Positions 3,022 to 60,585 of a DNA stretch of 64,000 nucleotides are shown piece by piece. The position numbers and the translations under genes were made by a program. The notes under the pieces were generated by a model. That model did not search any database and was not told the origin of the DNA. It worked only from the letters and a program-made list of their open reading frames with translations. Position 1 is the first letter of the stretch; each line of letters begins with the position of its first letter. Origin of the DNA: Minisyncoccota bacterium (GTDB lineage Bacteria; Patescibacteriota; Minisyncoccia; Phycocordibacterales; PALSA-1337); NCBI GenBank assembly GCA_041663145.1, contig JBAZRG010000002.1, positions 22,384 to 86,383 on the forward strand, given 5' to 3'.

Positions 3022-3030
3022 TTTATCGTA

Positions 3031-28361: not shown

Positions 28362-28372
28362 TAGAACCGTAA

Positions 28373-28472
28373 ACCCCACGCGACATAACAACATCCCTCC
28401 GTACACCTGCGGGCGCTTACGCTAAGCACAATCCTCGGTGTACGGAGGGATGTTGTTATGTCGCGTGGGGTT
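28373..28472. repeat. Element B copy 2: a 34-bp perfect inverted repeat enclosing a conserved loop (cctgcgggcgcttacgctaagcacaatcctcgg)
   Basis: 28373-28406 is the reverse complement of 28439-28472. The loop shares cctgcgggcgct and atcctcgg with copy 1. It lies immediately after the fusA stop. Confidence 0.75.
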
Positions 28473-30672: not shown

Positions 30673-30697
30673 GACCATCATATTAAAAAATAAAAAA

Positions 30698-32617: not shown

Positions 32618-32642
32618 ATATATATAGTATGATTATTCTGCA

Positions 32643-33716
32643 ATGAAAAATTTCCAAAAAGGGTTTGTCGTGCGGGGCATTATAGCAATCATAGCCTTAC
32701 TTTTATTAACAGGAGGAGCATATATAGCTTCCAAAGATCAACGGGGTACCGCAAGTAATCAAGACATAAGTGGTGAAAATGTTTTTAATAATTCCCAGGA
32801 ATCGAGATGTTCCAATGGTTCCACAAATTATCCTCACTGCAATGCCGATTTACCGTATATAGGAAGTATCACTTCTGGATCAACCATCTTTACACATGTT
32901 GACTCTGGTATTACTTTCAAATATCCCAAAAACTGGAAGTTTGATGCCGTAAAAAATTATTTTACAACGTCGGATTATCAGGAAGGTAAAAGCGGGGCAC
33001 GAATCGAATTTGTATATGGACTTTCATACAGTGACTGGCAAAAAACAGTTGCCGCTATGTATGGAAGTAAATCCACTAATAATCCAATTTTTATCAATGG
33101 AAGACCTGCATTGCAGACAACATATGCAAGTGAGCCATATCTTCTAGGACTATCGATACCATTTGCAAATAATACTGCGTTTATATCGTTATTCTTGAGA
33201 TACGAAGCTGCAGGAAGATTTGAGGCTTCATACAAGGAATCTTATGAGCCGATTTTGCGACAGATAGCTGAAAATATGATTTTGCCATCTTCGCAAGACA
33301 CGACTTGGCATACATATACTAACAATAAACATAATTTTAGCTTTAACCATCCGCCGCTTACAGCAGTAGTCCAAAGTAGCACATACTCGACAAATTCCGT
33401 GGCATCTTATGAAGTCTTTGTGCGTTATGGATTTCACCAGTTACTTTTTGTCTACTCTAAACCTTCCGATCATTCTATAAAGGCGTGGTATGACGGCACA
33501 TATTCTGAAATTACACCATTTAAAGGTCCTACAGAAAAAACAGTCAACGGATACTCAGCTATCGATGTTACCTTCAATGATATGGCTAATCTAACGAGAC
33601 ATATTATGCTTGCAAAAGGCAATGTTGTAATTGATTTTGTATTCAACGCTGACCCAGAGGGTCCACTGAATTTCGATCAACAAAAATTATTAGATTCATT
33701 TTTATTCATAAATTAA
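32643..33716 (+). CDS. Membrane-anchored or pilin-like-leader protein, paralogous N-terminus with the next gene
   Basis: The N-terminus MKNFQKGFVVRGIIAIIALLLLTGG is G-F plus a hydrophobic stretch, but lacks Glu at +5. Confidence 0.45.
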   Translation: MKNFQKGFVVRGIIAIIALLLLTGGAYIASKDQRGTASNQDISGENVFNNSQESRCSNGSTNYPHCNADLPYIGSITSGSTIFTHVDSGITFKYPKNWKFDAVKNYFTTSDYQEGKSGARIEFVYGLSYSDWQKTVAAMYGSKSTNNPIFINGRPALQTTYASEPYLLGLSIPFANNTAFISLFLRYEAAGRFEASYKESYEPILRQIAENMILPSSQDTTWHTYTNNKHNFSFNHPPLTAVVQSSTYSTNSVASYEVFVRYGFHQLLFVYSKPSDHSIKAWYDGTYSEITPFKGPTEKTVNGYSAIDVTFNDMANLTRHIMLAKGNVVIDFVFNADPEGPLNFDQQKLLDSFLFIN

Positions 33717-33717
33717 C

Positions 33718-34830
33718 ATGAAAAACTTACAAAAAGGATTTGTCGTGCCGGTACTTTTAACAATAATTACATTGTTGGTAGTCGGTGGTGGTGTTTATAT
33801 TTATCAAAGTAAAAAAGTAGAAACACCTTCTGTTAAAAATACTGACACGCCTCAGTTGAATCAAGTGCAACAGACAAATGCTCAAACTCCCGCCGTCACA
33901 CAACCGATAGTTACCTCTGCTGCAGTTTCCACAAAGCCTTCTATCACTGTTCTCTCTCCAAACGGCGGTGAGACATTTAAACAAAATTCTCCTATTACTG
34001 TGAAATGGTCACAGAATTTCTCTGGATCGGCATTTATTTGCCTTATGGGAGATGCTGGCTGTGTTTATAGTTCGACACCAGTCAAATTTAATTCAGGAAT
34101 TAATACTTTGACTATTCCTGTGGGTATAAATATTGCAACATGTAACACAACTATTTGTTATATCGCAGATGGTTTCAAGGTAAGAGTTACCACAGACAAT
34201 CAGCCTGGGAGTGGTCATGCGGGAGAATTCATGAATGACGAGAGTAACGGTTATTTTGTGATACTACCACAGACAGGCTTACAAGCATTTTCATTTTTAC
34301 AAGAGATGCAAAGTCAGATTGGTACTAATTACACAATTAATCCTTCAGTAGGAAGTACTATTCCAGCATTCAGAGTAGATTTACCGAGTGATAAATTTGC
34401 ACAAGCAACCAATTATCTCTCTTCTCAATTCGGTGGTCATAATAATAAATATACCAGTGAACGCGGGTATGGCTATGAAAATTGGCATTTGCTTTGCATG
34501 AGTATCGGTCTCGGTGCAGGTGCAGCTTCTTCAGATCTTCCGTATGTAACATGTAAGGACAAAGTTGGAGTTCAAACAATTGATGTTGTGGTTAAAGATA
34601 TAAAAGGCATTAATACAAATCCTCGCGATTTCCTACTGACGATAGGGAATGAGACTATGAAGGTTAGAATGCCAGCAGTGATACAAAATAACAATTACCA
34701 AAATGGTACTTATGCTGATTTCGTTAAAACCATAACCAGTAACCAATATCAGACGAGTACGTTCAAAATGACTGGTGAGATAAAGGGTGATGCTTTTGAG
34801 GTGACTACTATTCAGTGGATATTGGGTTAG
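33718..34830 (+). CDS. Membrane-anchored or pilin-like-leader protein (paralogue of 32643..33716)
   Basis: The N-terminus MKNLQKGFVVPVLLTIITLLVVGGG is nearly identical in design to the upstream gene. The start lies 2 nt after the upstream stop. Confidence 0.45.
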   Translation: MKNLQKGFVVPVLLTIITLLVVGGGVYIYQSKKVETPSVKNTDTPQLNQVQQTNAQTPAVTQPIVTSAAVSTKPSITVLSPNGGETFKQNSPITVKWSQNFSGSAFICLMGDAGCVYSSTPVKFNSGINTLTIPVGINIATCNTTICYIADGFKVRVTTDNQPGSGHAGEFMNDESNGYFVILPQTGLQAFSFLQEMQSQIGTNYTINPSVGSTIPAFRVDLPSDKFAQATNYLSSQFGGHNNKYTSERGYGYENWHLLCMSIGLGAGAASSDLPYVTCKDKVGVQTIDVVVKDIKGINTNPRDFLLTIGNETMKVRMPAVIQNNNYQNGTYADFVKTITSNQYQTSTFKMTGEIKGDAFEVTTIQWILG

Positions 34831-35016
34831 TATAACCAATACAAAGCCAAAAAATTTGCGAATTTTATTGAGTCATGTTAGTATCTTCTGTACGCGCAGA
34901 CCCTGCGTTTTTAATAGTCTTATTAACAATTTTATCCACTGCTTTTGGGATGATCGACGTGACACACTTGGATCCCGTCGAGTATTCCAAAAGTTGGGGC
35001 ACTAAAAATAAAAAAC

Positions 35017-36204
35017 ATGGCAGCAGAATTCAATCGCACAAAGCCGCACGTTAACGTCGGCACAATCGGCCACGTCGACCACGGAAAGTCGACGCTCACA
35101 GCCGCTATTCTTGTCGTTCAAGCCAAAAAAGGTTTGGCAAAGGAGAAGGCATACGCCGATATTACAAAGGGAGGTACCGTTCGAGACGCTTCAAAGACGG
35201 TTACTATCTCACTCGCTCACGTTGAGTATGAGTCAGCTACAAGACACTATGCTCATATCGATGCTCCTGGACATGCCGACTACATCAAGAACATGATCAC
35301 AGGTGCCGCCCAGATGGACGGTGCTATCTTGGTCGTATCCGCTCTAGACGGTGTGATGCCACAGACTCGTGAGCATATCCTCCTTGCCAAGCAGGTTGGT
35401 GTGCCGAAAGTTCTAGTATTTCTCAACAAATGTGATGCGGTCGAAGAGAAAGATTTGATTGACCTCGTCGAAGAAGAAGTTCGCGAACTATTGACCAAGC
35501 AAGGTTTCGATGGCAAGACAGCCCCAGTTATCCGTGGATCAGCCCTCAAAGCTCTCGAAGGTGATCCTGCATGGACTACCAAGATCGATGAACTCATGGA
35601 AGCTCTCGATACCTTTATTCCAATTCCAGTTCGTGAAGTCGACAAGCCGTTCCTGATGCCAATCGAAGACATATTCTCTATCGAAGGCCGTGGAACTGTG
35701 GTTACAGGTCGTATCGAGCGCGGAAGGATCACTTTGAACGAAGAAGTTGAGATCGTCGGATTCCGAGACACTGTAAAGACAGTTGTTACCGGTATCGAAA
35801 TGTTCAATAAACAGCTCAAAGAGGGTATCGCTGGAGATAACGCAGGTTTGCTCTTGCGTGGTACAGCCAAAGACGCCGTATCTCGCGGACAGGTACTATC
35901 GAAGACTGGTGCAGTCAAACCTCATACAGAATTTGAGTCAGAAGTTTACGTTTTGAAGAAAGAAGAAGGAGGTAGACACACACCATTCTTTACAGGATAT
36001 AAACCTCAGTTCTATATTCGAACAACAGACGTAACTGGTGAAGTAACATTGCCAGAGAAAGTAGAAATGGTAATGCCGGGAGATACAGTTACTTTCAAAG
36101 TGAAGCTCGTAGCTCCAGTCGCACTCGAAGCACAAATGCACTTTGCAGTTCGTGAAGGAGGCAAGACTGTCGGAGCCGGAGTCGTCACAAAGGTTATCGC
36201 TTAG
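35017..36204 (+). CDS. tuf: Elongation factor Tu
   Basis: [22 protein letters not shown] and the C-terminal beta-barrel motifs are present. Confidence 0.95.
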
Positions 36205-36265
36205 TGCAAAATGAAGATTAAAAATTAACACATTCCATTTTAGTTTTTAATTTTCCATTAAAATA

Positions 36266-36667
36266 ATGACAGCAAACAAAGACACAACCAAGCACGAAGC
36301 TCCTAAGGAAGCAAAAGCTTCTAAACCTGTTAGAATTCGTAAAAATAAGGCAGCAGATGCGGTACCCCATCTACGAATCAGGGTTAGAGCTTATGAACAC
36401 AAGATTTTGGACGCTTCCTTGAAACAGATTATCGATACGGCCAGCCGATACGACGCTACCATTCATGGTCCAGTGCCGTTGCCGACCGAGATCAAGAAGT
36501 ACACTGTAAATCGCTCTTCATTCATCGATAAGAACTCACGTGAACAGTTCGAAATGAGAGTTCACAAGCGTTTGATCGACATCGTCAATCCAAACCCGAA
36601 GGTTATCGAGGCGTTGACGAACTTGAGTTTGCCATCCGGAGTGAATATAGATGTAAAGATGATGTAA
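36266..36667 (+). CDS. rpsJ: 30S ribosomal protein S10 with a ~35-aa N-terminal extension
   Basis: LRIRVRAYEHKILD...HGPVPLPTEIKKYTV...HKRLIDIV. Confidence 0.9.
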   Translation: MTANKDTTKHEAPKEAKASKPVRIRKNKAADAVPHLRIRVRAYEHKILDASLKQIIDTASRYDATIHGPVPLPTEIKKYTVNRSSFIDKNSREQFEMRVHKRLIDIVNPNPKVIEALTNLSLPSGVNIDVKMM

Positions 36668-36721
36668 TGAAGTTATTCTGATCCTGTCAAAGGATGTCCG
36701 AAACGACTAAAGCAAACCAAC

Positions 36722-37342
36722 ATGAAATTTATTTTAGGAAGAAAACTGAATATGACGCAGATATATGACGCAACTGGTCGTGCCATACCGGTTACAGCTG
36801 TGGCTGTGCGTGGCAATGTCATCACTCAGGTCAGGACATCGGAAATCGATGGTTATTCAGCTTTGCAGGTAGGGGAAGGATCTCGCAATCCAAATCGCAT
36901 AAATAAAGCGCAAAAAGGTCATTTCAAAGATCTTGGATCATTTAGTTCTCTTCGAGAGTTCCGATTGGATCCGGCAAATGCAGTGACCGCCAAGGTTGGC
37001 GACAAGATCGAGCTTTCCAACTTTACAGTCGGAGAGATTGTGACTGTTTCGGCAACATCAAAAGGTAAAGGTTTCCAGGGTGTTGTGAAGCGTCACGGAT
37101 TCCATGGAGGACCACGTTCTCACGGTCAAAAACACTCAGAACGCGAACCAGGATCGATCGGTGGAGGTCTTCGTACACACGTTCCAGTCGGTATGCGAAT
37201 GGCCGGTAGGATGGGAAGTGAGCGCATAACAGTTCGCAATCTCAAAGTCACTCATATTGACCCGGAAGAGAACGTAATGTATGTTTCTGGAGCAATACCA
37301 GGCCGAAGAGGTACTCTGGTAGAGATCGTCAGTCAAAACTAA
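36722..37342 (+). CDS. rplC: 50S ribosomal protein L3
   Basis: 206 aa with L3 conserved segments; operon position. Confidence 0.9.
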   Translation: MKFILGRKLNMTQIYDATGRAIPVTAVAVRGNVITQVRTSEIDGYSALQVGEGSRNPNRINKAQKGHFKDLGSFSSLREFRLDPANAVTAKVGDKIELSNFTVGEIVTVSATSKGKGFQGVVKRHGFHGGPRSHGQKHSEREPGSIGGGLRTHVPVGMRMAGRMGSERITVRNLKVTHIDPEENVMYVSGAIPGRRGTLVEIVSQN

Positions 37343-37346
37343 TATC

Positions 37347-38015
37347 ATGGAAGCCAATATATACAATCAGACAGGAAAAGAAACCGGCAAGGTCACATTG
37401 CCAACGGGGGTATTCGATCTTCCTTGGAATGCCGACTTGGTGCATGAAGTTGTTCGATTGATGAATTCAAATTCCAGAACAAATATTGCCCATACAAAAA
37501 CTCGTGGTGAAGTACGAGGTGGAGGAAAGAAGCCGTGGAAACAGAAGGGTACTGGACGAGCACGTCACGGTTCGACCAGGTCACCGATCTGGGTAGGAGG
37601 TGGAGTAGCCCATGGTCCGAGAAATGACAAGAATTTTGATCGCAAGATCAATAAGAAAGTCAAAACAAAAGCTTTGTTTACTATTCTTTCCCGCAAATGG
37701 AAAGATGGTGAAATACTCTTCCTCGATAATATGAACATCTCAGCTCCAAAGACAAAGGACGCAAAATCAGTTATCGGATCGCTTTCGAAGATCAAAGGTT
37801 TTGATAAATTAACCACAAAAAAGGTCAATACTGCTTTATTCACAATAAATAAAAAGAGCTCAGCCATTGAAAAAAGCTTCCGTAATATCGGTAATGTCTC
37901 GATCGAAGAATTCCGAAATATCAATCCAGTCAATATCTTGAATCATACATATCTGATTGTTTCTGATCCTGTCGAATCATTTAAGTCGTTCGATTCAAAG
38001 ATTGCAAAGAAATAA
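37347..38015 (+). CDS. rplD: 50S ribosomal protein L4
   Basis: 222 aa with L4 conserved segments; operon position. Confidence 0.85.
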   Translation: MEANIYNQTGKETGKVTLPTGVFDLPWNADLVHEVVRLMNSNSRTNIAHTKTRGEVRGGGKKPWKQKGTGRARHGSTRSPIWVGGGVAHGPRNDKNFDRKINKKVKTKALFTILSRKWKDGEILFLDNMNISAPKTKDAKSVIGSLSKIKGFDKLTTKKVNTALFTINKKSSAIEKSFRNIGNVSIEEFRNINPVNILNHTYLIVSDPVESFKSFDSKIAKK

Positions 38016-38037
38016 TAATTTCCATATCACTACTACC

Positions 38038-38400
38038 ATGGCTATATTCGGACTTAAAAAAATAAAAGAGACAAAGAAGATCAAGGCAGATGCTAAGCCC
38101 GTTGTTTTTGTCGAAAAGAAAGACAACAATCACGCTTCGGTAGTTATCAGGCCTCGTATTACCGAGAAGTCAGGTATATTGAGTCAGAGCAATGTCTATA
38201 CATTCGAAGTTACTAAGAACGCAAATAAAGGTTCGATCATGAAGGCTATTTCTACTTTGTACAAAGTTGTACCGACAAAGGTAGCGATCATCAATACACC
38301 AAGACGCAATGTCTTCGTAAAAGGTCGCAAGGGTACAGTTGCAGGAATCAAAAAAGCCGTCATTACCCTCAAAAAGGGTGATAAGATCGACTTCGTTTAG
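38038..38400 (+). CDS. rplW: 50S ribosomal protein L23
   Basis: The start is taken at ATG 38038 (MAIFGLKK...). The upstream extension in the ORF track overlaps rplD. Confidence 0.8.
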   Translation: MAIFGLKKIKETKKIKADAKPVVFVEKKDNNHASVVIRPRITEKSGILSQSNVYTFEVTKNANKGSIMKAISTLYKVVPTKVAIINTPRRNVFVKGRKGTVAGIKKAVITLKKGDKIDFV

Positions 38401-38432
38401 TCTAAATATACTTTCAATTTTAATTTACCAAT

Positions 38433-39287
38433 ATGAAATCATTCCGACCAACAAGTAAATCACGCCGACACATGACGGTTTTGCCGTTCAAGCAATATCT
38501 CACTGCTTCTGAACCTCACAAGTCTCTAACACGTGGTATGAAGCGTGATATGGGTCGCAATGCATTTGGCCGAATCACAGTACGACACAAAGGTGGAGGC
38601 CATAAGAAACTATTCCGTGATATCGATTTTAAATATGACAAAAAGGACATGATAGCGACAGTCAAGACTGTTGAATACGATCCTTTCCGAACTGGATATA
38701 TCGGTATAGTCAATTATAAAGACGGCACAAAGAGATACGTTCTTTTGCCAAAGTCTATGAAAGTGGGCAATTCATTTATCGTATCCGAAAATGCTCCGAT
38801 CGAAACTGGTAATCGTTTGCCTTTGAAAAAGATTCCAGTCGGTGCTTTTATCTACAATATCGAAGTCAAACCAGGTAGCGGAGCCAAGCTCGTCCGTTCA
38901 GCTGGTTCATTTGCTCAGGTTATCGCCAACGACGCCGGATATACTCACATCAAGATGCCTTCGACTGAGATCAGAAAGATTCATGATGATGCTTGGGCTT
39001 CTATAGGTGCCGTATCAAATGAAGAAAATCGTCTCGTAAATATCGGTAAAGCAGGTCGTTCACGATGGATGGGTATTCGTCCTACGGTTCGTGGTTCTGC
39101 TCAAAACCCAGTAGATCACCCATACGGTGGAGGTGAACAGCGTTCAGGAAGAGGTCTTCGACGTCTAAAAACTCGTTGGGGCAAACCAGCTGGTAAAGGT
39201 CAAAAGACTCGCCGTTCAAAGAAATATTCCAATGTTTTTGTTGTATCACGTCGTCAGCCAGGTAAGAATATGACGGCATCGAGTTAA
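38433..39287 (+). CDS. rplB: 50S ribosomal protein L2
   Basis: 284 aa with L2 conserved segments including the C-terminal GGGEQRSGRG region. Confidence 0.95.
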   Translation: MKSFRPTSKSRRHMTVLPFKQYLTASEPHKSLTRGMKRDMGRNAFGRITVRHKGGGHKKLFRDIDFKYDKKDMIATVKTVEYDPFRTGYIGIVNYKDGTKRYVLLPKSMKVGNSFIVSENAPIETGNRLPLKKIPVGAFIYNIEVKPGSGAKLVRSAGSFAQVIANDAGYTHIKMPSTEIRKIHDDAWASIGAVSNEENRLVNIGKAGRSRWMGIRPTVRGSAQNPVDHPYGGGEQRSGRGLRRLKTRWGKPAGKGQKTRRSKKYSNVFVVSRRQPGKNMTASS

Positions 39288-39377
39288 GGTTCTTAACTTA
39301 TGCTTAATAAGATAATAAAGATTACTAAAATTGTTATGGATGCGATAGTACGAACTATTATCGGAAAATAGAGCTTT

Positions 39378-40199
39378 CTATTTGGTCGGTATCTCAATTG
39401 TGAAAGTTGTTCCTCGATTTATTCCAGGAGAACTGACTGTAATCTTTCCATGATGTTTCTTTACGATCGATCGGGCAAGGAATAGTCCAACACCGAAACC
39501 TTCTGTATCTATATTCTGGGCGTTTTTTGTGCGGTAGAATTTCGTGAATATCTTGTCTATGTCGGCGTGATCAATGCCGATACCATTGTCGACAATAACT
39601 ATTATGGCTGTATTCGATCTTTGTCCGATACTCACCTCAACATTTCTGCCTGGTGGAGTGTAATTGTGGGCATTTTCCAATATTGTTTGTAAGACAAATT
39701 CCATTCGAGGTCGATCGATTTTTGCGGTTAATTGCTGGATAGCACACTGAACTGAGAAGAACAAGTTTTTTTGATGGAATAAGTCTTTGTGCTGTTCGGC
39801 AATTGATTTTACAAAGGCACATATATCAGTAGTTTCGAAGTTATATGAAGATTTCGTTTCATTGTCGAGATTTGTCATTTCGATCAGTGTGCCGGTTAGA
39901 TTGATCAATTTTTCATTTGATTGCTTCAGATCTTTGAAATTTTCCAGACGTCGAACATCTTGTTCTTCAGCTACCATGCTTTCGATCAACCACTTGGCAG
40001 CTGTGAGTGGTGTTCGGAATTTGTGAGCGATGATCGTTATGAATTCGTATTTGAGCTTTTCGTTTTCATTGATCTTGATCCATATTCGAGAAATGATGAT
40101 ATAGAGTAGACTGACCACAATGACAGCCAACAGAGAGAGTCCGATCAAATTGCTTTCAAATATGGTCGAATCATCGATAAGTATTTTGAAATCCATCAT
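39378..40199 (-). CDS. Membrane-anchored sensor histidine kinase (HisKA + HATPase_c); no response regulator nearby
   Basis: H-box IIAHKFRTPL and G-boxes DNGIGI / GFGVGLFLARSIV. It has an N-terminal TM helix. It sits convergently after rplB. Confidence 0.8.
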   Translation of the reverse strand: MMDFKILIDDSTIFESNLIGLSLLAVIVVSLLYIIISRIWIKINENEKLKYEFITIIAHKFRTPLTAAKWLIESMVAEEQDVRRLENFKDLKQSNEKLINLTGTLIEMTNLDNETKSSYNFETTDICAFVKSIAEQHKDLFHQKNLFFSVQCAIQQLTAKIDRPRMEFVLQTILENAHNYTPPGRNVEVSIGQRSNTAIIVIVDNGIGIDHADIDKIFTKFYRTKNAQNIDTEGFGVGLFLARSIVKKHHGKITVSSPGINRGTTFTIEIPTK

Positions 40200-40268
40200 A
40201 GGTGCTTTGATTATAGCATTATGGGGATAAGGTGGTCATGCTATAATGTAGATAAATAAGTGTTCGAT

Positions 40269-41813
40269 ATGAAAAAAACTTTCAAATCTTATATAAAAAA
40301 GTGGCATATAGTAGTTCTGATCATATTTGTATTGATTGTAGTTGGATATGTATTTTTGAAAGGAGGTGATAGACCTATATTTGAGACGGCTCTGGTTACA
40401 ACGGGGGATATTATCCGAGAAGTTAGTGTAACAGGCAAGGTTTCGCCGATAGAAAGGGCACAATTATCTTTTGCCAAAGGGGGAATTGTTACGAAGATAG
40501 CCGTCAAGGTCGGTGATAAAGTAAAAAGAGGCGATATGATAGCCTCGCTAGATGATGCTGTGGACAAAGCCAATCTGGCGGCAGCTGAAGCAAAATTGGC
40601 TGATATTTCTCGCACTTTACGTCCGGAAGAATGGAAATTGGAACAATCAAAGGTTAATTCATCCAAAGTCGCTCTGGATAATTCAAAAAAAGATTCTGAG
40701 AATGCTTTTCGTGAAAGCTATAACACAGTCCAAAGCGCACTTATAAACTATACTGATCAGATTTTTGACAATCCACAAAGTATAAATCCGACAATAAAAG
40801 TTAGATTGTCTGGTACGACTCAGCAGTCGCGGATTAATGAACTTCGATTGAAGGTGACTGAGAATATGGCAAAATGGAAAGCTGATATAGATGCGATGAC
40901 AAGTGGAGTAGATCAAGACAACCTACTTTCAAAAGCTATGCAATATCTGGATGTAGATAAGATTTTTTTGAGTGAACTCTCTGCGATTGTGAATGGTTTG
41001 AACTCAGTCAATTCAGGATTGACGGAAGCTACTTTGGAAATATATATTTCGGATACAAATACAGCCATTTCATTGCAAAATCAAGCAATTACGGTAGTTA
41101 CCACGGCAGATTCGGCATTACGCAATGCTTCCTCGGCATATGTCGAAGCACAGAACAGTTCCTCGTTAAAAGTCGCCGGCTCATCTTCCGAATCCATAAA
41201 AGCTCAGGCTGCATCTGTTGCGGCCTATCGAGCAGAATTGTCTCGAAATCAGATCACAGCTTCGATAGATGGAATCATCACGCGAGTTGTGCCAAATGTG
41301 GGCGAATATGTTTCTCCTGGAATGACATTGTTCGATTTACAAAGCAGCGGAATATACAAGATCGAGGCCAATGTAGCAGAAGCGGACATAGCCAAGATTG
41401 CTATTGATGATACGGCTCAGGTGACTTTGGATGCATACGGACAAGATGTAATATTTGGAGCCAAATTGGTCCGGATAGACCCGGCTGAGACTGTCCTCGA
41501 GGGTGTTCCAACATATAAAGTCACACTATTTTTCGATGATGAAGATGAAAAGATCTTTTCGGGAATGACTGCTAATACGGATATTTTGACTGATAAGCGT
41601 AATGATGTGATGATGGTGCCTTCGCGTTCTATTCTCGAAGAGAAAGATGAGATTACAGGACAAGTTACAGGTCGATTTGTCAGAGTTATGAATCCAGACA
41701 ATCGTGATTTCACTAAAGTTCCAGTCACTGTAGGTCTCAAAGGATCATCTGGCACGACGGAGATCATTTCCGGTTTGAATATTGGTGATACGGTCGTGAC
41801 GTATGTGAAATAG
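40269..41813 (+). CDS. HlyD/MacA-family periplasmic adaptor (membrane fusion protein)
   Basis: N-terminal TM anchor, a long coiled-coil middle region and a C-terminal beta-barrel region. It is followed by ABC ATPase and FtsX-like permease genes. Confidence 0.7.
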   Translation: MKKTFKSYIKKWHIVVLIIFVLIVVGYVFLKGGDRPIFETALVTTGDIIREVSVTGKVSPIERAQLSFAKGGIVTKIAVKVGDKVKRGDMIASLDDAVDKANLAAAEAKLADISRTLRPEEWKLEQSKVNSSKVALDNSKKDSENAFRESYNTVQSALINYTDQIFDNPQSINPTIKVRLSGTTQQSRINELRLKVTENMAKWKADIDAMTSGVDQDNLLSKAMQYLDVDKIFLSELSAIVNGLNSVNSGLTEATLEIYISDTNTAISLQNQAITVVTTADSALRNASSAYVEAQNSSSLKVAGSSSESIKAQAASVAAYRAELSRNQITASIDGIITRVVPNVGEYVSPGMTLFDLQSSGIYKIEANVAEADIAKIAIDDTAQVTLDAYGQDVIFGAKLVRIDPAETVLEGVPTYKVTLFFDDEDEKIFSGMTANTDILTDKRNDVMMVPSRSILEEKDEITGQVTGRFVRVMNPDNRDFTKVPVTVGLKGSSGTTEIISGLNIGDTVVTYVK

Positions 41814-41864
41814 TTGGGTGGATGTTTCGTGTGAGGATTATACTTTCACATAATACGAGCCGAT

Positions 41865-42578
41865 ATGCAGAACATAATTGAAGTAAAAAATCTCAGTAAA
41901 TCTTATGATGATGGTACAGTCGCACTTAACGGAGTGACTTTTTCGGTTCGTAAAGGTGAATTTATGGCCATTATGGGTCCGTCAGGTAGTGGGAAATCCA
42001 CACTTTTGCATTTGCTTGGTCTCCTAGATATACCGACGAAGGGTTCATATCATCTGGATGGACACCCGATATCCTCATATTCCGATATAGATCTGGCCAG
42101 GATCAGAAATCACCATCTCGGTTTTGTCTTTCAATCATTCAATCTTCTGCCGAGGACTTCAGTTTTGGAAAATGTAAAATTACCTCTGTTTTATTCAACT
42201 GTTCCAGAAATAGAATGGGAAATGAAGGCAAAAAAAGCCGTAGAAGATGTTGGTCTCGGTCACAGAATGTTCCATGAACCGGCAGAACTTTCAGGTGGAG
42301 AAAAGCAACGTGTAGCAATAGCGCGAGCTCTGGTCAATGATCCAGATATAATATTTGCTGATGAGCCGACTGGTAATCTAGATTCGAAATCTGGCAAAAA
42401 TGTCATGGCAATCATTCAACATCTAAATGAAGAACACGGCAAAACCATTATCCTTATTACACATGAGACATCAACAGCCGAACATTCAGAAAGGATCATT
42501 CATCTCATAGATGGAGAGATAGATAGTGATCATAAAGTTAGAAATCGTCTGAAAACCACAGATCAGTATGTAAAATAA
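41865..42578 (+). CDS. ABC transporter ATP-binding protein (MacB/LolD-type)
   Basis: Walker [10 protein letters not shown], signature LSGGEKQR and Walker B IIFADEPT. Confidence 0.9.
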
Positions 42579-42583
42579 ATATC

Positions 42584-43819
42584 ATGACCTGGAAACATAT
42601 TATCAAGACTTCTCTGACCGGACTCTCGACGAATAGATCGAGATCTTTTCTGACTATACTGGGAATAGTGATAGGTATTACATCGATAATGCTGGTGGTT
42701 TCTCTAGGTGCTGGAGCTCAAAATCTGATACTCGGTCAGATCCAAGGACTCGGTTCGAATACTCTGACTGTACACGCCGGCAGGGAACCATCGGGTCCAT
42801 CGGACGTATCTTTTCTATATAGCGATTCTTTGAAGGAAAAAGATGTTATTGCCCTCAAGAATAAAACAAATGTTCCCGGTTTAAAATCCATAATGCCCTC
42901 GGTTTTCGGCGCTGTTACTGTTTCATACGGTTCAAACTCATATCAAACATCAATATTTGGTTGTACTGATTTGGTTGTGGATATCATGGATCTCAATCCT
43001 ATTGGAGAATTTTTCACCGAACAAGACGTTTCTTCGAGAAGCGATACGGTTGTTCTAGGTTCAAAAGTGGTTGAGCACATATTCGATAATGAAGATCCTA
43101 TCGGACAAAAGGTCAAGATTAAGGGTCGGAATTTCAAAGTAATTGGCACGTTGCCGGCTTCTGGTGGAGGATCGATATTTAATTTTGACGATATGGTTCT
43201 AGTACCATATACAACTGCTCAGTATTATATTCTCGGTCAGAAACATTTTAGCGAAATCATCATGCAGGCGGTTTCTGATATTGCAGTTCCATCTACAGCT
43301 GAAGATATCAAAACAACCCTACGCGAATCTCATGGTATTACAGATCCAACTAAAGATGATTTCAACGTCAGCACTCAACAAGATCTAGCAAAGAGACTAG
43401 GTACTATCACTAGTATTTTGACTTATTTCCTAGTGGCTGTGGCTTCGATCGCTCTATTTGTAGGAGGTGTAGGCATCATGAACATCATGCTTGTTGCTGT
43501 TACAGAACGCACTCGAGAGATAGGTCTTCGAAAGGCCTTGGGTGCAACGAATAAAGATATATTGTCACAATTTTTGATTGAAGCTATATGTCTCACGGTA
43601 ATGGGCGGTATCATTGGAATATTTCTAGGTTCAGTATTGGCTTTTGCTATTTCCTTTGGGCTTTCGAAAGGTTTAGGTGTTGATTGGCAATATATATTCC
43701 CCTGGAGTGGGGCAATGCTAGGTTTTGGTGTATCAGCTCTGATCGGTCTCATTTTCGGCGGATATCCAGCTAGTCAGGCATCAAAGAAGAGTCCGATAGA
43801 GGCGTTGAGGTATGAGTAG
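42584..43819 (+). CDS. ABC transporter permease, FtsX-like (MacB-type)
   Basis: 411 aa with an N-terminal TM helix, a large periplasmic domain and a C-terminal 3-TM FtsX domain. Confidence 0.85.
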   Translation: MTWKHIIKTSLTGLSTNRSRSFLTILGIVIGITSIMLVVSLGAGAQNLILGQIQGLGSNTLTVHAGREPSGPSDVSFLYSDSLKEKDVIALKNKTNVPGLKSIMPSVFGAVTVSYGSNSYQTSIFGCTDLVVDIMDLNPIGEFFTEQDVSSRSDTVVLGSKVVEHIFDNEDPIGQKVKIKGRNFKVIGTLPASGGGSIFNFDDMVLVPYTTAQYYILGQKHFSEIIMQAVSDIAVPSTAEDIKTTLRESHGITDPTKDDFNVSTQQDLAKRLGTITSILTYFLVAVASIALFVGGVGIMNIMLVAVTERTREIGLRKALGATNKDILSQFLIEAICLTVMGGIIGIFLGSVLAFAISFGLSKGLGVDWQYIFPWSGAMLGFGVSALIGLIFGGYPASQASKKSPIEALRYE

Positions 43820-43858
43820 ATTCGCTCTGATTTGAATAGATTTATAACGTAACCCCCC

Positions 43859-44007
43859 TTGCATCCTCGTTTTTCATCCTCGAACTCTACTCACAATATA
43901 CCAACATTTTCACAAAGGATGCGTTACAAGGATTCGCGCATCCTTTGGAAAATGTATTGGTATATTGTTTCGCAGATTATTCTCGGAAGAAAAACGAGGA
44001 TGCAAGG
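43859..44007. repeat. Nested palindromic structure: an 18-bp perfect outer inverted repeat enclosing a ~70-nt imperfect hairpin
   Basis: cttgcatcctcgtttttc at 43859-43876 is the reverse complement of 43990-44007. The inner acaatataccaacattttcacaaaggatgcg pairs with cgcatcctttggaaaatgtattggtatattgt. Confidence 0.6.
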
Positions 44008-44068
44008 AGTGTTACGTAAAATCTTCATATTCACGTCCATGACTACTTTTGTAAAATTTCAGCTCCTC

Positions 44069-44220
44069 GAGCTCGGTGAATATTGTTCGGAAACGACTCG
44101 CAATGCGATTTGAACCCCGAACAAATTGCCCATATCTGAGTAGTTCCATCTACTCAAATATGGATGCAATTTGGAGTGGGTGACCTTGCGTGTCGTTTCC
44201 GAACAATGTTCACCGAGCTC
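44069..44220. repeat. Element A copy 2 (outer 35-bp inverted repeat plus conserved core)
   Basis: gagctcggtgaatattgttcggaaacgactcgcaa (44069-44103) is the reverse complement of 44186-44220. The core at 44104-44185 matches the 3067-3149 core at most positions. The variable stem segment differs from copy 1 but stays self-complementary. Confidence 0.75.
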
Positions 44221-44297
44221 TTTCTTTTCTTGACTTCAAAGTGTGGCTCTGTTAACATGCAACGACTGCTCCGCGGAGCTGTTTTAGTTAATCTTAC

Positions 44298-44648
44298 ATG
44301 TCAAGATCACTCAAGAAAGGTCCATATGTCGACGAAAATCTTATCAAAAAGATTTCGGGTAAAAAGCCGGCTCAAACTGGTACTATAAAAACATGGGCAC
44401 GTCGTTCTCAAATCTCACCTGAAATGGTGGGCTTTACTTTTGGTGTTCACAATGGACGCAATCATCTAGATGTATTTGTAACCGAGGACATGGTAGGACA
44501 CCGCCTCGGTGAATTTTCGCCTACAAAGAAATTCATCCGACATGGAGGTAAGATGCAAAAGGAGATCGAACTCAAGGCTAAAGAAGCAGAGATGGCCGCA
44601 GCCAAATCCGCCAAGGAAGCCGCTACAACAGCAGCTACAAAGAAATAA
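44298..44648 (+). CDS. rpsS: 30S ribosomal protein S19 with a Lys/Ala-rich C-terminal extension
   Basis: [15 protein letters not shown]..., [12 protein letters not shown]..., HRLGEF. Confidence 0.95.
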
Positions 44649-44657
44649 TCCACTGCC

Positions 44658-45086
44658 ATGATTACCGCTTCACTCAAAAATTTCCGAATATCACCACGAA
44701 AAGTCCGTCTAGTTGCCAATATGATCCGCGGTAAAGGCGTAGCCGATGCTCAAAATATTTTAAATACAGTCATCAAGAAAGCTGGTAGTCCACTCGGCGA
44801 TTTGTTAAATTCCGCCGTGGCAAATGCTTCACATAACTATCAGATCGAAAAGAGCGCGCTTTTCGTAAAAGAGATCCGTGTCGATCAGGGATATGTTATG
44901 AAGCGTTCGATGCCTGTTTCCCGAGGTTCAGCCCATCCTATTATGAAGAGAACAAGCCATGTCAGCATCACTCTGGCACCGATCATCGCAAAGGGTGCAA
45001 AGAGTACGAAGTCTGAGAAGGCAGTAGAGGAGAAGCCAGTTATAGAAAAAGCAAAAGTAGCCAAAAAGAAAACAACCAAGAAATAA
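44658..45086 (+). CDS. rplV: 50S ribosomal protein L22
   Basis: 142 aa with an L22 core and a K-rich C-terminal tail; operon position. Confidence 0.85.
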   Translation: MITASLKNFRISPRKVRLVANMIRGKGVADAQNILNTVIKKAGSPLGDLLNSAVANASHNYQIEKSALFVKEIRVDQGYVMKRSMPVSRGSAHPIMKRTSHVSITLAPIIAKGAKSTKSEKAVEEKPVIEKAKVAKKKTTKK

Positions 45087-45092
45087 ACTAAC

Positions 45093-45761
45093 ATGTCACA
45101 TACCGTACACCCTTATTCACATAGACTTGGAATTATCCGCGATTGGAAGAGTCGCTGGTTTCTTTCTCATAAGAATTACCGATCCGCTCTGAAAGGGGAT
45201 CTTTTGATTCGTGAATTTTTGATAGAACAATTGCGGGCAAACTATCTAGGAGGCATAGATATCGAAAGAAATCAAAAGACTTTGCGCGTAGTCATCAAGA
45301 CATCTCGTCCAGGTCTACTCATCGGCAAGGCTGGTGATGGTGTCGTGAAGCTTCGCGAAAAGATCCTGAAATTGCTCCGAGTCAATAAAGTCGAGCTCAA
45401 TGGTCAGGAACTCAAAGTTGATATCGAAGAGATTCGAAATCCAGAGTCAAATGCCGCTATTGCAGCCATGATGGTTGCTGAATCACTCGAGAAACGTCTA
45501 CCATTCCGCCGAGTTCTAAAGCAGACTGTCGAAAAAGTCATGGCAAATAGAGAAGTTCAAGGTATCCGTATATATTTGGGAGGTCGTCTAGGTGGAGCTG
45601 AAATAGCCCGTTCAGAACAACTCAAAAAGGGTCGAATACCACTACAGACTTTGCGTGCCGACATTGATTTTGCTCGAGAGAAAGCCCATATGACATATGG
45701 AGATATTGGTATAAAGGTTTGGATATACAAAGGAGAGATTTTCAAAAAAGATCAGAAATAA
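45093..45761 (+). CDS. rpsC: 30S ribosomal protein S3
   Basis: 222 aa with a KH-domain region (LLIGKAGDGV...). Confidence 0.9.
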   Translation: MSHTVHPYSHRLGIIRDWKSRWFLSHKNYRSALKGDLLIREFLIEQLRANYLGGIDIERNQKTLRVVIKTSRPGLLIGKAGDGVVKLREKILKLLRVNKVELNGQELKVDIEEIRNPESNAAIAAMMVAESLEKRLPFRRVLKQTVEKVMANREVQGIRIYLGGRLGGAEIARSEQLKKGRIPLQTLRADIDFAREKAHMTYGDIGIKVWIYKGEIFKKDQK

Positions 45762-45795
45762 TACGCAATTCAATTTTTCATTTTAAATTACCAAC

Positions 45796-46221
45796 ATGTT
45801 ATTCCCAAAAAAAGTAAAACATCGCAAATGGTTCACCATGCGTACGCATCCAGACAAGGAGGCGTCTCATGCTGATACCCGAGGTGTTCATATTGCTTTT
45901 GGTTCATATGGACTCAAGGCCACCAAGTATGCCCGAATAACATCAAATCAGATAGAAGCCGCTCGAAAAGTTATGGCCCGTTATGCTACGAAGTCCGGTA
46001 AAGTTTGGATTCGTATTTTTCCAGATCATCCTTTCACACAAAAGCCTGCTGAAGTAAAAATGGGTAAAGGAAAAGGAGATCCAGTAGGATATATCGCCGA
46101 AGTAAAGCCAGGTCGTATCATGTTCGAGATCGATGGAGTAGAGCCACTCGTAGCCGCTGAAGCTTTGCGTAAGGCTGGTACAAAACTACCGGTCAAATGT
46201 AAAGTAGTCAGCCGAAACTAA
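45796..46221 (+). CDS. rplP: 50S ribosomal protein L16
   Basis: 141 aa with L16 conserved segments. Confidence 0.9.
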   Translation: MLFPKKVKHRKWFTMRTHPDKEASHADTRGVHIAFGSYGLKATKYARITSNQIEAARKVMARYATKSGKVWIRIFPDHPFTQKPAEVKMGKGKGDPVGYIAEVKPGRIMFEIDGVEPLVAAEALRKAGTKLPVKCKVVSRN

Positions 46222-46235
46222 TACACCATACCAAT

Positions 46236-46421
46236 ATGAAAATGAAGGATATAACAAATAAGACAGAAGGAGATCTAGCAAGGATGCTTGTAGAAAAGAA
46301 CGAAGCTCTCCGAGTATTTCGTTTTGGGGGTGCTGGAGCCAAGAGCAAAAATGTCAAAGAAGGCCGAATGATCAGAAAGGACATTGCTCGTATAAAAACA
46401 TTTCAAAATAGCAAATCCTAG
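46236..46421 (+). CDS. rpmC: 50S ribosomal protein L29
   Basis: 61 aa; operon position between L16 and S17. Confidence 0.75.
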   Translation: MKMKDITNKTEGDLARMLVEKNEALRVFRFGGAGAKSKNVKEGRMIRKDIARIKTFQNSKS

Positions 46422-46457
46422 ACAAAACATCACTGATAACGTAATATCACAATTCAC

Positions 46458-46715
46458 ATGAAGACCACCGAAACAACTGAAAAGAATGGAAAACGACAAG
46501 TTTTTGTCGGTGTTGTTGTCTCTGACAAAATGAAAGATACGGTTGTTGTCGAAGTCAAACGTTATGTTAAGCATGAGAAGTATCACAAGTTCCAGACAAA
46601 GAAGACCAAACTCATGGCCCACGATGCTGGCAATACAAAGAAGATAGGGGATAGTGCCACCATCGAAGCTTGCAGGCCATTATCAAAGCATAAAAATTTC
46701 AAAGTAATCGCATAG
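46458..46715 (+). CDS. rpsQ: 30S ribosomal protein S17
   Basis: GVVVSDKMKDTVVVEV.R...H.KY. Confidence 0.9.
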   Translation: MKTTETTEKNGKRQVFVGVVVSDKMKDTVVVEVKRYVKHEKYHKFQTKKTKLMAHDAGNTKKIGDSATIEACRPLSKHKNFKVIA

Positions 46716-46741
46716 TTTTCTTTTTACATTAATCCAAACCC

Positions 46742-47113
46742 ATGATTCAGCCTCGAACAATTGTGAAAATAGCCGATAACTCAGGAGCCAAAATAGGCCG
46801 TATTTTCAAAGTGCTCGGCGCAACCAGAAAGCGCTATGCTGAATTGGGCGAAGTAGTAGTTTTGTCAGTTCAGAAAGCCGAACCTAGAAAGGCAATAAAA
46901 AAGAAAGATGTTTTGCATGCGGTAGTAGTGAGACAAACAAAAGCTACCAGACGCAAAGATGGTTCGTATATTCGTTTTGATGAAAATGCAGTTGTGATTA
47001 TCGAAAAAGATAAGAAAGAGCCGATAGCCGGACGTATTTTCGGTCCTATACCTCGTGAAGTCGGTGAGGCAGGATTCAAAACCATAGCTTCGAGAGCACC
47101 TGAAATAGTCTAA
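46742..47113 (+). CDS. rplN: 50S ribosomal protein L14
   Basis: [17 protein letters not shown]... Confidence 0.95.
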
Positions 47114-47944: not shown

Positions 47945-48361
47945 ATGATGATAAAGTTCCTGCTCATATTAGCGGTGATACCGTTCATATTCGTAACTCC
48001 CGACAATTCATTCGCAGGGGAGACGAATACTCTAAGCAAGTCTTTTGTCGCCATAAAGGCGCCTAAGCTTAATATTGGGACAAACGACACTACGGTCACC
48101 AAGGTCAAATGGAGCATCGAAACGACAGAATCAAAAGATGTCTTCAGATTACCTTTGGAAGACAGAATGGATTTCGATTCCTATACGGAGTTCTCTGGAG
48201 CAAAGAATGGTCGGGACATCTGGAATTGGAGACTCATCAGAGTAACCAAAAGATCCGGTATCGGACCGTTTGTTTCGGCTGACTATCCAGTCACAATGAC
48301 TGGTCCCAATAGGGATACCCTTTCGACAGGAATTGCTTTTGGTGCGATAATAGGTAGATAA
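47945..48361 (+). CDS. Small secreted protein of unknown function inserted between rplE and rpsZ
   Basis: 138 aa with a signal peptide MMIKFLLILAVIPFIFVTPDNSFA. An RBS aaggagaac lies upstream. It is followed by a strong terminator. Confidence 0.5.
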   Translation: MMIKFLLILAVIPFIFVTPDNSFAGETNTLSKSFVAIKAPKLNIGTNDTTVTKVKWSIETTESKDVFRLPLEDRMDFDSYTEFSGAKNGRDIWNWRLIRVTKRSGIGPFVSADYPVTMTGPNRDTLSTGIAFGAIIGR

Positions 48362-50193: not shown

Positions 50194-50985
50194 ATGACTG
50201 CCAAAGAAATCAAACAGAATAACGATAGTACTGCCGGAGGTGGGGCAGCGGCTTTGGATATCAATATTCCAGCTACTGGTGTTGATGTGGCAGCTATTTT
50301 GCCTGAGAGTGCCCATATTGCCGATGTTGCCGATATTCCTGCAACTGCTCCTACAGCAAACAAATTTACTCCTGGTCGCAAGATGCGTGGTGATCCGGCT
50401 CGCAGAGGTGGACATGGATCGGCTGGTCCTGGCGCTCAAAGCCGTGGTGGACCAAGAGGTGGTAGAGGAGAAACTCGTGAACGTGTTAAACCAGAATTTG
50501 ATTCCAAAATCATCGATATTCGCCGTGTGACTCGAGTCGCAGCCGGTGGACGAAGATATTCATTTAGCGTTGCAGTCGTTGCAGGAGACCGTAAGGGTCG
50601 CGTCGGTGTAGGTTTGGGTAAAGGTGGAGATACAGCTTTGTCAGTAGAAAAGGCCACTCGTGAAGCAAAGAAGAATCTCATCAAGATCACCCTTTCTCCT
50701 CAGATGACTATCCCTCATGCAGTAGAAGGTAAGTATGGCAGTGCACTCATAAAGATCTTTCCGGCTAGAGGAAGTGGTATTGTGGCTGGAAGCTCAGCTC
50801 GTGCTGTTATCGAACTTGCTGGTGTTAGAGATGTCTGTGCCAAATTCCTATCTGGTAGCAAAAATCGCCTCAACAATGCTCGCGCCGCTATCGAAGCTTT
50901 CCGATCACTATCAAAAACTTCCCGAGCCACACTTCGCGGTAAGACACCGAAAGTAAAAGAAGGTATAGCTCCAGTTCAGAAATAG
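50194..50985 (+). CDS. rpsE: 30S ribosomal protein S5 with a ~100-aa Gly/Ala/Arg-rich N-terminal extension
   Basis: The S5 core IIDIRRVTRVAAGGRRYSFSVAVVAGDRKGRVGVGLGKG is preceded by a low-complexity N-terminus. Confidence 0.9.
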   Translation: MTAKEIKQNNDSTAGGGAAALDINIPATGVDVAAILPESAHIADVADIPATAPTANKFTPGRKMRGDPARRGGHGSAGPGAQSRGGPRGGRGETRERVKPEFDSKIIDIRRVTRVAAGGRRYSFSVAVVAGDRKGRVGVGLGKGGDTALSVEKATREAKKNLIKITLSPQMTIPHAVEGKYGSALIKIFPARGSGIVAGSSARAVIELAGVRDVCAKFLSGSKNRLNNARAAIEAFRSLSKTSRATLRGKTPKVKEGIAPVQK

Positions 50986-55007: not shown

Positions 55008-55042
55008 GGCGGCACCATAGTCCTCTAAAAACGATCGTGCGT

Positions 55043-55216
55043 AATCGCTTTTGAATAACAGGCACTAACAGAATGTTCCCAGAACAATCCGAGTATGCGA
55101 TTGAGCTTCGAAAAATTACCCGTGTTTGGTGAAGCCCTGGAACCAAACACGGTTGTAATTTGAGAAGCGATTACGCAGGATTGTGGCGGGAACATTCTGT
55201 TAGTGCCTGTTATGAT
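55043..55216. repeat. Complex interleaved inverted-repeat structure downstream of ndk (pseudoknot-like or alternative stems)
   Basis: Pair A: cgtgcgtaatcgcttt (55043-55058) with gaagcgattacgcagg (55165-55180). Pair B: tgaataacaggcactaacagaatgttccc (~55060-55090) with gggaacattctgttagtgcctgttatga (~55188-55216). There is an inner hairpin cgtgtttggt...ccaaacacgg. Confidence 0.55.
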
Positions 55217-55587
55217 TTAATCACGTATTCGGATTGTTTCCGAAGTATTGTGGTACTGCCTTACCCAAATTTAATCCTAAGATTTCATTACAACTTGCAG
55301 TAATTACTGAATAATGTCGCAACTACTTTTTCCTCTTGCGCTTCGAGATGAGAGTAATACAATTAAGACAGATTGCGAGAGTAAAATCCTACAAAATTTT
55401 TATTTTTGGAATGTCGACGAACAGGTAGAGCTGTTCAATTTCTTCCGCGATCTTTATGACGTTGGAAGCTAGATAACCCACCTGGAACACCAGGTATATT
55501 ACTCTCGCGATCTATGAAGCGCATCCCGATCTATACAGATACGGGGTGCTTTTCTATATTATCCATTATCACGTATAATTGAACACA

Positions 55588-60557: not shown

Positions 60558-60585
60558 CAAAAATAAGAAGCGTAGCGACTATATT

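Follow-up and report, generated by a model that had tools for sequence, protein, structure and literature searches.

Interruption of the S10 ribosomal protein cluster between rplB and rpsS in Paceibacteria, with an antisense histidine kinase, a MacB-type exporter, and a recurrent predicted promoter-leader module

Few gene arrangements in prokaryotes are as conserved as the S10-spc-alpha cluster of ribosomal protein genes, which commonly serves as an anchor for synteny and binning in uncultured lineages. In a 64-kb stretch of contig JBAZRG010000002.1, analyzed here as a whole and referred to as the window, this cluster is interrupted between rplB and rpsS by a minus-strand histidine kinase gene, the MFP/HlyD adaptor (membrane fusion protein [MFP]), ABC ATPase, and MacB-type permease genes of an exporter, and two long palindromes. 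The lineage of the window belongs to the Paceibacteria (Taylorbacteria-like Patescibacteria), and comparison with relatives indicates that the hairpin-flanked interruption is an inherited trait of this lineage and not a fresh mobile-element event. We consider it probable that the cluster was split long ago at a pre-existing boundary between transcription units, and that this inherited boundary has since acted as a hotspot for cargo genes. What is new here is a conserved internal promoter predicted for rpsS, a portable module at every breakpoint, and a conserved antisense kinase; taken together, this is a lineage-specific variant of ribosomal operon organization plus ordinary two-component and ABC transporter genes. 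We found no paper describing an interruption of the S10 cluster in Patescibacteria or the candidate phyla radiation (CPR).

The distance from rplB (L2, 38433-39287) to rpsS (S19, 44298-44648) is 5,010 nucleotides (nt; 39288-44297), measured between genes placed by Pfam. Upstream of it, tuf (EF-Tu, 35017-36204), rpsJ (S10, 36266-36667), rplC (L3, 36722-37342), rplD (L4, 37347-38015), rplW (L23, ending at 38400), and rplB form a contiguous plus-strand unit (35017-39287) with gaps of 8 to 98 nt. On the other side, the plus-strand segment starting with rpsS (44298-47113, likewise placed by Pfam) leads into rplV (L22), rpsC (S3), rplP (L16), rpmC (L29), rpsQ (S17), rplN (L14), and the rest of the cluster. 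The S10-operon gene order is thus kept, and only the contiguity of rplB and rpsS fails, with a convergent gene in between. The initial annotation of this DNA had described the interruption as a sensor kinase convergent with rplB, a HlyD adaptor, an ABC ATPase, and an FtsX permease; Pfam agrees on the position of the break, on all four identities, and on the minus-strand orientation of the kinase (39378-40199).

The rplB-rpsS boundary and its promoter-leader module

The comparison set consists of 80 species-level loci, matched by their L2 protein (79 to 93% identity) among species-representative genomes; all are Patescibacteria metagenome-assembled genomes, labeled Taylorbacteria, Paceibacterota, or Parcubacteria. 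Window proteins were mapped onto these loci to obtain gene order and gap sizes, and genes were assigned by Pfam scans, by NCBIfam models with curated cutoffs, and, for membrane segments, by hydropathy. A quick neighbor-joining tree of L4, L23, and L2 served as the species tree, with an ingroup of about 65 loci and an outgroup of 15. Promoters, leaders, and terminators are consensus predictions throughout.

Across the 80 loci, rplB and rpsS are separated by as little as 20 nt and as much as 8.5 kb. The two genes are adjacent (20 to 159 nt apart) in 14 of the 15 outgroup loci, the exception being L071, while the gap is enlarged in every member of the ingroup. The nearest relatives of the window in the L4, L23, and L2 tree are L014 and L005, both of which share the order rplB, minus-strand kinase, HlyD. 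In other loci, cargo genes of the gap encode, among others, a lysA-like decarboxylase together with an aminotransferase; a reverse transcriptase, a DEAD helicase, and a receiver protein occur as well. The rplB-rpsS junction is a boundary between predicted transcription units that tolerates cargo; because it is a unit boundary, DNA could be placed there without polar effect, which would make it a long-lived hotspot. Contiguity of S10 markers should therefore not be assumed in Patescibacteria: in a whole Paceibacteria clade, variable cargo of as much as 8.5 kb is accommodated at rplB/rpsS, and cargo also occurs at rplC/rplD, rplP/rpmC, S7/fusA, and fusA/tuf.

Some of this cargo recurs. A class I/II aminotransferase and a pyridoxal phosphate-dependent ornithine/diaminopimelate/arginine decarboxylase (lysA-like) are found in the gap of L012, L027, L043, L053, L056, L060, and L073, sometimes joined by two more conserved open reading frames (ORFs). 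Reverse-transcriptase genes (RVT_1) lie in the gap of L034 (8679-9680), L077, and L003 and may be of the retron or diversity-generating retroelement type.

The sole noncoding stretch of the region that is conserved among relatives is the 80 nt upstream of rpsS. In the window, this stretch holds a predicted plus-strand promoter-leader module (44230-44285) made up of a -35 element (TTGACT, 44230-44235), an extended -10 element at a spacing of 17 (TGTTAACAT, that is, TAACAT with an upstream TG; 44250-44258), an inverted repeat (GCTC-cgcg-GAGC, 44268-44279), and a T-run (44282-44285). The initial annotation had raised the possibility of a new rpsS promoter within 44220-44297, and the consensus match TTGACT-17-TAACAT indeed falls inside that interval. 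Among the 61 relatives carrying rpsS, a promoter of the form TTGAC-N16-18-TAnnnT, nearly always with an upstream TG, is predicted at most 160 nt from rpsS in 59. It is also predicted in the outgroup, where the rplB-rpsS spacer is just 47 to 160 nt; because the promoter is present there with rplB and rpsS adjacent, the predicted rpsS transcription unit predates the insertions. In outgroup loci L065 to L067, L072, L076, L078, and L080, the predicted -10 element ends 6 to 9 nt before the ATG, which implies that the rpsS mRNA would be leaderless, or nearly so, in several outgroup genomes.

In the ingroup, the promoter is followed by an inverted repeat, (A/C)GCTC-N3-7-GAGC(T/C), and a T-run (alignment A3). 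In general form, the module reads TTGACT-17-TGnTAnnAT, GCTC-loop-GAGC, T-run. A pattern search over both strands of 1.26 Mb of loci recovered the complete module before rpsS (47 loci), rplD (18 loci), and rpmC (3 loci) only, and never on the minus strand. These are the places where the cluster is broken: the module precedes rplD in every locus in which rplC/rplD is seen interrupted, bar L003 and L024, whose rplD modules were missed by the strict search pattern, and rplP/rpmC is interrupted in the three loci with an rpmC module. A few of the 18 loci with an rplD module show merely a short spacer or have an unsequenced upstream flank. When the window itself was scanned with the pattern, the architecture was convincing upstream of a plus-strand gene only at rpsS (44250) and at tuf (34876), where the predicted promoter/leader of the unit from tuf to rplB (34876-34912, plus strand) comprises the extended -10 element TGTTAGTAT, the hairpin CGCAG-acc-CTGCG, and then TTTTT.

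Compared with the classical S10 operon, the window shares genes, order, and orientation. It differs in being broken at rplB/rpsS by unrelated genes, as relatives are at rplC/rplD and rplP/rpmC too, and in that the downstream segments each have their own conserved promoter-leader module, for which there is no Rfam match to a ribosomal protein leader (at the gathering threshold, the only Rfam match in the whole window is a transfer-messenger RNA [tmRNA]). The early short hairpin and U-run of the window leader resemble the attenuator logic of the Escherichia coli S10 leader. The inverted repeat may work in RNA, as an attenuator or 5' stem-loop, or in DNA, as an operator, and the module as a whole may be a so far unrecognized ribosomal protein leader, attenuator, or operator of Paceibacteria. 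We also considered a reading of the repeat as a direct repeat of the kind found in response-regulator boxes, GAGCTC-N4-GAGCT, and judged it weaker, as the invariant GCTC and GAGC form an inverted repeat and the 5' unit is often CGCTC. The S10 cluster, then, can be rewired into several units driven by their own predicted promoters, and the repeated module offers a testable candidate for the coregulation of split ribosomal units in bacteria with reduced genomes.

The antisense kinase and the exporter cassette

The kinase gene encodes a membrane-anchored protein of 273 amino acids (aa) with Pfam HisKA and HATPase_c domains. Its architecture is minimal: about 16 residues and one hydrophobic segment (residues 11 to 44) are followed directly by HisKA, from residue 50, and no extracytoplasmic, PAS, HAMP, or similar input domain and no further Pfam domain was found in the protein. 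The catalytic core is intact, with the H (H59, in HKFRTP), N (NAHNYT), G1 (DNGIG), F (FTKF), and G2 (GFGVG) boxes all present. Against the NCBIfam models for WalK, PnpS, and PhoR, the core shows a generic likeness, with every score far under the cutoff.

In 37 loci of the ingroup of about 65, the deepest ingroup branches included, the rplB-rpsS gap carries a minus-strand orthologue of this kinase. The kinase tree recovers the clades of the species tree, and distances in the two are correlated (rho = 0.46, p = 2e-32). Because the gene is present in these 37 loci, including deep branches, and its tree matches the species clades, we conclude that the kinase is ancestral to the ingroup and vertically inherited; it has been lost several times since.

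Kinase and exporter genes of the window diverge from a 69-nt control region (40200-40268) that contains two back-to-back extended -10 elements, both TGCTATAAT, one predicted for the kinase (40218 to 40210, minus strand) and one for the exporter (40239-40247, plus strand). Of 38 loci, 23 have a TGnTAnnnT extended -10 element, mostly TGnTATAAT-like, no more than 110 nt ahead of the kinase start, and in most of these it lies at 14 to 34 nt. At its other end, the kinase gene is separated from rplB by a convergent spacer of 90 nt between the stop codons (39288-39377), which holds no palindromic element and no significant structure (fold z = -1.27). A canonical bidirectional terminator occupies this junction in several relatives; the window is without one, and it may be speculated that rplB transcripts read through into the kinase, coupling the two genes by antisense.

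The kinase had been described in the initial annotation as having no response regulator nearby, and we recovered no receiver-domain gene from the 64-kb window in tblastn searches with CheY, OmpR, NarL, and Spo0F (best E-value 0.24). A response regulator is missing beside the kinase orthologue in nearly all relatives as well. Two kinds of receiver protein do occur in individual loci: five loci (L012, L027, L031, L045, and L061) have a minus-strand gene for an OmpR-type response regulator about 2 kb upstream of tuf, and a double-receiver protein is encoded in the rplB-rpsS gap of L046 (5780-6598) and L009 (14109-14912). These proteins are candidate partners of the otherwise orphan kinase.

The three plus-strand genes that follow the control region encode an exporter. 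The HlyD/MFP adaptor (from 40260, or more likely from the ATG at 40269, to 41813) carries Pfam domains HlyD_D23, HlyD_3, and Biotin_lipoyl_2, has an N-terminal anchor at residues 6 to 35 according to hydropathy, and scores 157 bits against a cutoff of 95 with the RND_mfp model TIGR01730. The ABC ATPase (41865-42578) is of the LolD/MacB/FtsE type by Pfam (ABC_tran, PF00005) and NCBIfam, with a Walker A motif, the signature LSGGEKQR, and the Walker B motif IIFADEPT. The permease (411 aa, 42584-43819) matches MacB_PCD (PF12704, 2e-41) and FtsX (PF02687, 3.5e-20) and has four hydrophobic regions and an extracytoplasmic MacB_PCD domain. Models for specific exporters all score far under their cutoffs (e.g., 218 bits versus 966 for E. 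coli MacB), and the E. coli MacB model aligns to the permease over positions 261 to 646. Judged by these domains, the transporter is a MacB-type tripartite exporter with ATPase and permease as separate subunits.

With MacAB-TolC of E. coli, the window exporter shares an MFP adaptor, an ABC ATPase, and a four-transmembrane permease with a MacB periplasmic core domain; E. coli MacB is a fused protein, whereas ATPase and permease are separate polypeptides in the window. No outer-membrane partner was seen within the window, where alone it was looked for, and none is expected. A split ATPase and permease together with a long MFP, as found here, are also features of YknXYZ of Gram-positive bacteria and of pneumococcal Spr0693-0695.

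This cassette is a resident of the clade that sits at different sites. It lies at rplC/rplD in eight loci, which form the sister clade of the window, and at rplB/rpsS in nine loci and the window; within the latter gap it occupies either the interval between rplB and the 3' end of the kinase (L052, L073, and L077) or that between the 5' end of the kinase and the rpsS promoter (the window, L005, and L014). In the permease tree, the window permease clusters with those of the sister clade's rplC/rplD cassettes. Fourteen of the 15 cassettes examined have TGnTAnnnT just upstream of HlyD, L023 being the exception, and in loci with the cassette after rplC, the rpsJ-rplC unit ends in canonical intrinsic terminators. 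The permease family is large (7,203 proteins at E <= 1e-60), and the top matches listed are mostly from Paceibacteria or Patescibacteria; besides one 100%-identical JGI protein, presumably from the source of the window itself, the closest among the matches listed has 77% identity. Homologues at 77% are encoded elsewhere, in the order asnS/aspS-type tRNA synthetase, cassette, extracytoplasmic function (ECF) sigma factor, second cassette, and one of them comes from a separate contig of L019, a genome that has no cassette in its S10 cluster. GC and GC3 of all four inserted genes match those of the neighboring ribosomal genes. Because orthologues sit at several sites across Paceibacteria, the cassette is a resident gene set that has moved within genomes and not a foreign import.

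An alternative to a neutral hotspot is that the linkage has been selected: the kinase, and the exporter where present, would be part of the regulation of the ribosomal cluster, and the shared module would coordinate the split units. That deep branches retain the kinase in one position and orientation speaks for such a role, as does the spacing in kinase-only loci, where the kinase extended -10 element lies back to back with the rpsS -35 element, about 8 to 12 nt apart; yet the kinase has been lost many times, and many kinase loci have no cassette within 10 kb. The cassette is found at three sites, all within the S10 cluster and always co-oriented with it, but co-orientation is uninformative, as nearly all genes of the window are on one strand, and close permease homologues occur away from ribosomal genes, beside an ECF sigma factor. 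A kinase without a sensor domain needs a partner or a membrane cue, and an OmpR-type regulator is encoded just upstream of tuf in the relatives named above; the window, however, has no response regulator. On balance, we regard selected linkage as unlikely. The signaling that it would require could involve a response regulator encoded at a distance or, in the manner of BceS with BceAB, the MacB-type transporter, and would couple envelope or efflux status to ribosomal protein synthesis, which we think similarly improbable.

The Bce comparison is attractive for the window itself. Like the kinases of BceRS-BceAB modules, the window kinase is essentially without an extracytoplasmic domain, and it adjoins, and diverges from, an FtsX-family ABC transporter. 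BceB, however, is a 10-transmembrane permease with a large extracellular domain, whereas the window permease is of the four-transmembrane MacB type; Bce kinases have two clear transmembrane helices, whereas the window kinase has one hydrophobic segment and no adjacent regulator; and in most relatives the kinase is not beside a transporter but stands alone. With the defining features of Bce modules missing and the kinase mostly alone, a Bce-like coupling of kinase and exporter appears doubtful. Quite a long shot is the further idea that the clade dismantled its S10 operon into autonomous units carrying one shared module, with the sensorless kinase, transcribed back to back with the rpsS promoter, as a conserved regulator that would tie ribosomal protein synthesis to envelope or efflux status, and the exporter as its co-sensor in some lineages. 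If true, the whole scheme would be a previously undescribed way to coordinate ribosome production in ultra-small bacteria.

Palindromic repeats and the history of the interruption

Two palindromes lie between the permease gene and rpsS. The first, 28 nt past the permease stop codon, is a nested palindrome of 171 nt (43847-44017) with 38-nt arms that are 87% complementary and inner arms at 43908-43952. The second, 52 nt farther on, is a copy of a repeat named Element A (copy 2, 152 nt, 44069-44220), with 35-nt arms that are 94% complementary; its stem is followed by TTTCTTTTCTT, 9 nt ahead of the rpsS -35 element. The region 43820-44300 folds at -209 kcal/mol (z = -17.5 versus shuffles). Permissive Rfam searches of the hairpin regions returned only generic microRNA-precursor matches far under threshold, which we rejected as family assignments.

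The window contains six such palindromes of 100 to 190 nt, all intergenic, and five of the six start within about 30 nt of a stop codon. The others are Element A copy 1 (3030-3185, stop at 3021) and palindromes at 14668-14787 (stop at 14673), 28372-28472 (stop at 28361), and 55055-55213 (stop at 55007, palindromic region from 55031). In the 80 relatives, the nested palindrome has no homologue, and the window palindromes in general are not conserved, the one exception being L035, where an unrelated site (553-700) matches Element A weakly.

Element A is nevertheless a dispersed repeat. By a pattern scan, at least 15 copies are present in metagenome Ga0209542 (L081-L094), which includes the L035 organism, as L087 has the same copy and flanks. 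The copies inspected in this metagenome all lie between ORFs, most of them 0 to 30 nt from a stop codon, in either orientation. Between copies, a core of about 95 nt is about 96.5% identical, while the outer arms of about 30 bp are 66 to 68% identical; despite this divergence, the arms stay Watson-Crick complementary within each copy. No G-U strand asymmetry, of the kind that selection at the RNA level would produce, was found in Element A, and its flanks show no target-site duplication; no partner transposase was identified.

The window repeats are comparable to ERIC/IRU, REPIN, Correia, RUP, and repeats like MITEs (for miniature inverted-repeat transposable elements) in that they too are noncoding, imperfect palindromes of 100 to 200 nt, present in multiple copies and located between genes, near gene ends. 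A classical MITE has conserved termini, whereas Element A is reversed in this respect, with the core conserved (about 96%) and the arms not (about 67%). A search of the literature on MITEs in CPR bacteria returned nothing relevant. The best reading of the hairpins is that they are genome-specific, dispersed intergenic repeats which built up where 3' intergenic space was free. The nested palindrome is probably a hairpin of this type and possibly a terminator or insulator, and the hairpins probably contribute to terminating exporter transcripts ahead of the rpsS promoter.

Several other hairpin families came to light alongside these. In the window, the palindromes at 14668-14787 and 28372-28472 form a second family (74% identity over 74 nt), and overlapping palindromes at 55031-55261 follow an NDK-like gene. 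The sister species L003 (7669-7858) and L008 (5861-5984) carry, directly after the permease stop codon, a different family with conserved termini TGTCATTCCCGCGAAAGCGGGAATCCAGGAT and variable interiors, as in classical MITEs. A further, shared family, CAAATTTCAAAATCCAAATGACAAATC, occurs at different ribosomal junctions in L028 and L033.

The initial annotation took the palindromes on the rpsS side as a sign that the block had been inserted by a hairpin-associated mechanism. The palindromes are real, the nested one spanning 43847-44017 rather than 43859-44007, but the insertion proposed on their account is not supported. On such a reading, the nested palindrome and Element A would be the ends of a recent arrival, like a MITE, an IS200/IS605-type element, or another palindrome-associated element. 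Two very stable palindromes do sit exactly at the rpsS-side edge of the block, yet the rplB edge carries no such element, a comparison of the flanks gave only chance-level short matches in place of direct repeats, and none of the six ORFs scanned in the block (two small ones besides the four genes) encodes a transposase or recombinase, the Pfam domains found being those of the kinase, adaptor, ATPase, and permease only. Element A does look mobile and multicopy, and L003 and L008 likewise have hairpins after the permease gene; long hairpins are equally found at many cargo-free junctions, however, such as S10/L3 (L005, L027, and L045), L4/L23 (L033), and L23/L2 and L22/S3 (L028), where relatives have hairpins of their own. 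The kinase and the cassette are vertically inherited residents, and L014 and L005 share the order rplB, kinase, HlyD, yet have neither the window's palindromes nor homologues of them. As for a mobile island more generally, the block shows no composition anomaly relative to its host, the kinase tree is congruent with the species clades, and the cassette groups with that of the sister clade. An ancient shared arrangement without the flanking elements, which the initial annotation had held against its own proposal, is largely what the relatives show, although it is widespread and variable rather than universal. Delivery of the block by hairpins is thus most improbable.

A chimera of assembly or binning, in which the block was joined by misassembly across repeats, is barely credible. 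The genome is of the metagenome type, and Element A repeats do lie at one edge of the block, but the order rplB, minus-strand kinase, HlyD recurs in the independent assemblies L014 and L005, the junction of FtsX with the rpsS promoter recurs in L017, the kinase follows rplB in 37 independent genomes, and composition is uniform.

We therefore return to an inherited split at a unit boundary, for which the following history may be proposed. The S10 cluster in the lineage of the window would be a chain of separate transcription units and not a single operon, with rpsS heading its own unit under a strong predicted sigma-70-type promoter with an extended -10 element, followed by the short inverted repeat and T-run. 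The first tenant of the boundary would have been the small kinase without a sensor domain, fixed in the ingroup ancestor in antisense orientation behind rplB and later lost several times. In the lineage of the window, L014, and L005, the resident MFP-ABC-MacB cassette would then have moved, its own promoter included, between the kinase start and the rpsS promoter, so that kinase and exporter are now predicted to be transcribed divergently from the 69-nt region. Two unrelated palindromic repeats would have settled 3' of the permease later.

Some observations weigh against this account. The cassette has relocated repeatedly within the S10 cluster, at three sites, which a neutral hotspot model alone does not explain. 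The leader shows no covariation beyond that of shuffles (RNAalifold keeps three pairs, and pair counts agree), its inverted repeat being too invariant, and so lends no support to a structured RNA. The functions of promoters, leader, and terminators are predicted from consensus sequences, and with a three-protein neighbor-joining tree, how many cassette relocations and kinase losses occurred, and in which direction, is approximate. Finally, the junction of FtsX, hairpins, and rpsS in the window has no close relative to set beside it, the next permease being 77% identical.

Other features of the window

The str cluster of the window is split too: four large ORFs (702, 652, 357, and 370 aa) occupy 28564-34830, between fusA (26217-28361) and tuf, and none of the four is matched significantly in Pfam or NCBIfam. 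In relatives, too, the fusA/tuf and S7/fusA junctions vary (0.1 to 4.5 kb). The spc section shows another small interruption, a 138-aa ORF (47945-48361) that has no match in Pfam and lies between rplE (L5) and the S14/S8 genes. Two ribosomal proteins are unusual in length. S5 (50194-50985) has 263 aa, and its Pfam S5 N-domain begins only at residue 102; S10 has an N-terminal extension of about 36 residues. The tmRNA gene lies at 60196-60560 (Rfam, 108 bits) and encodes the tag peptide AKSTVSPYFGAKDFSFALA.

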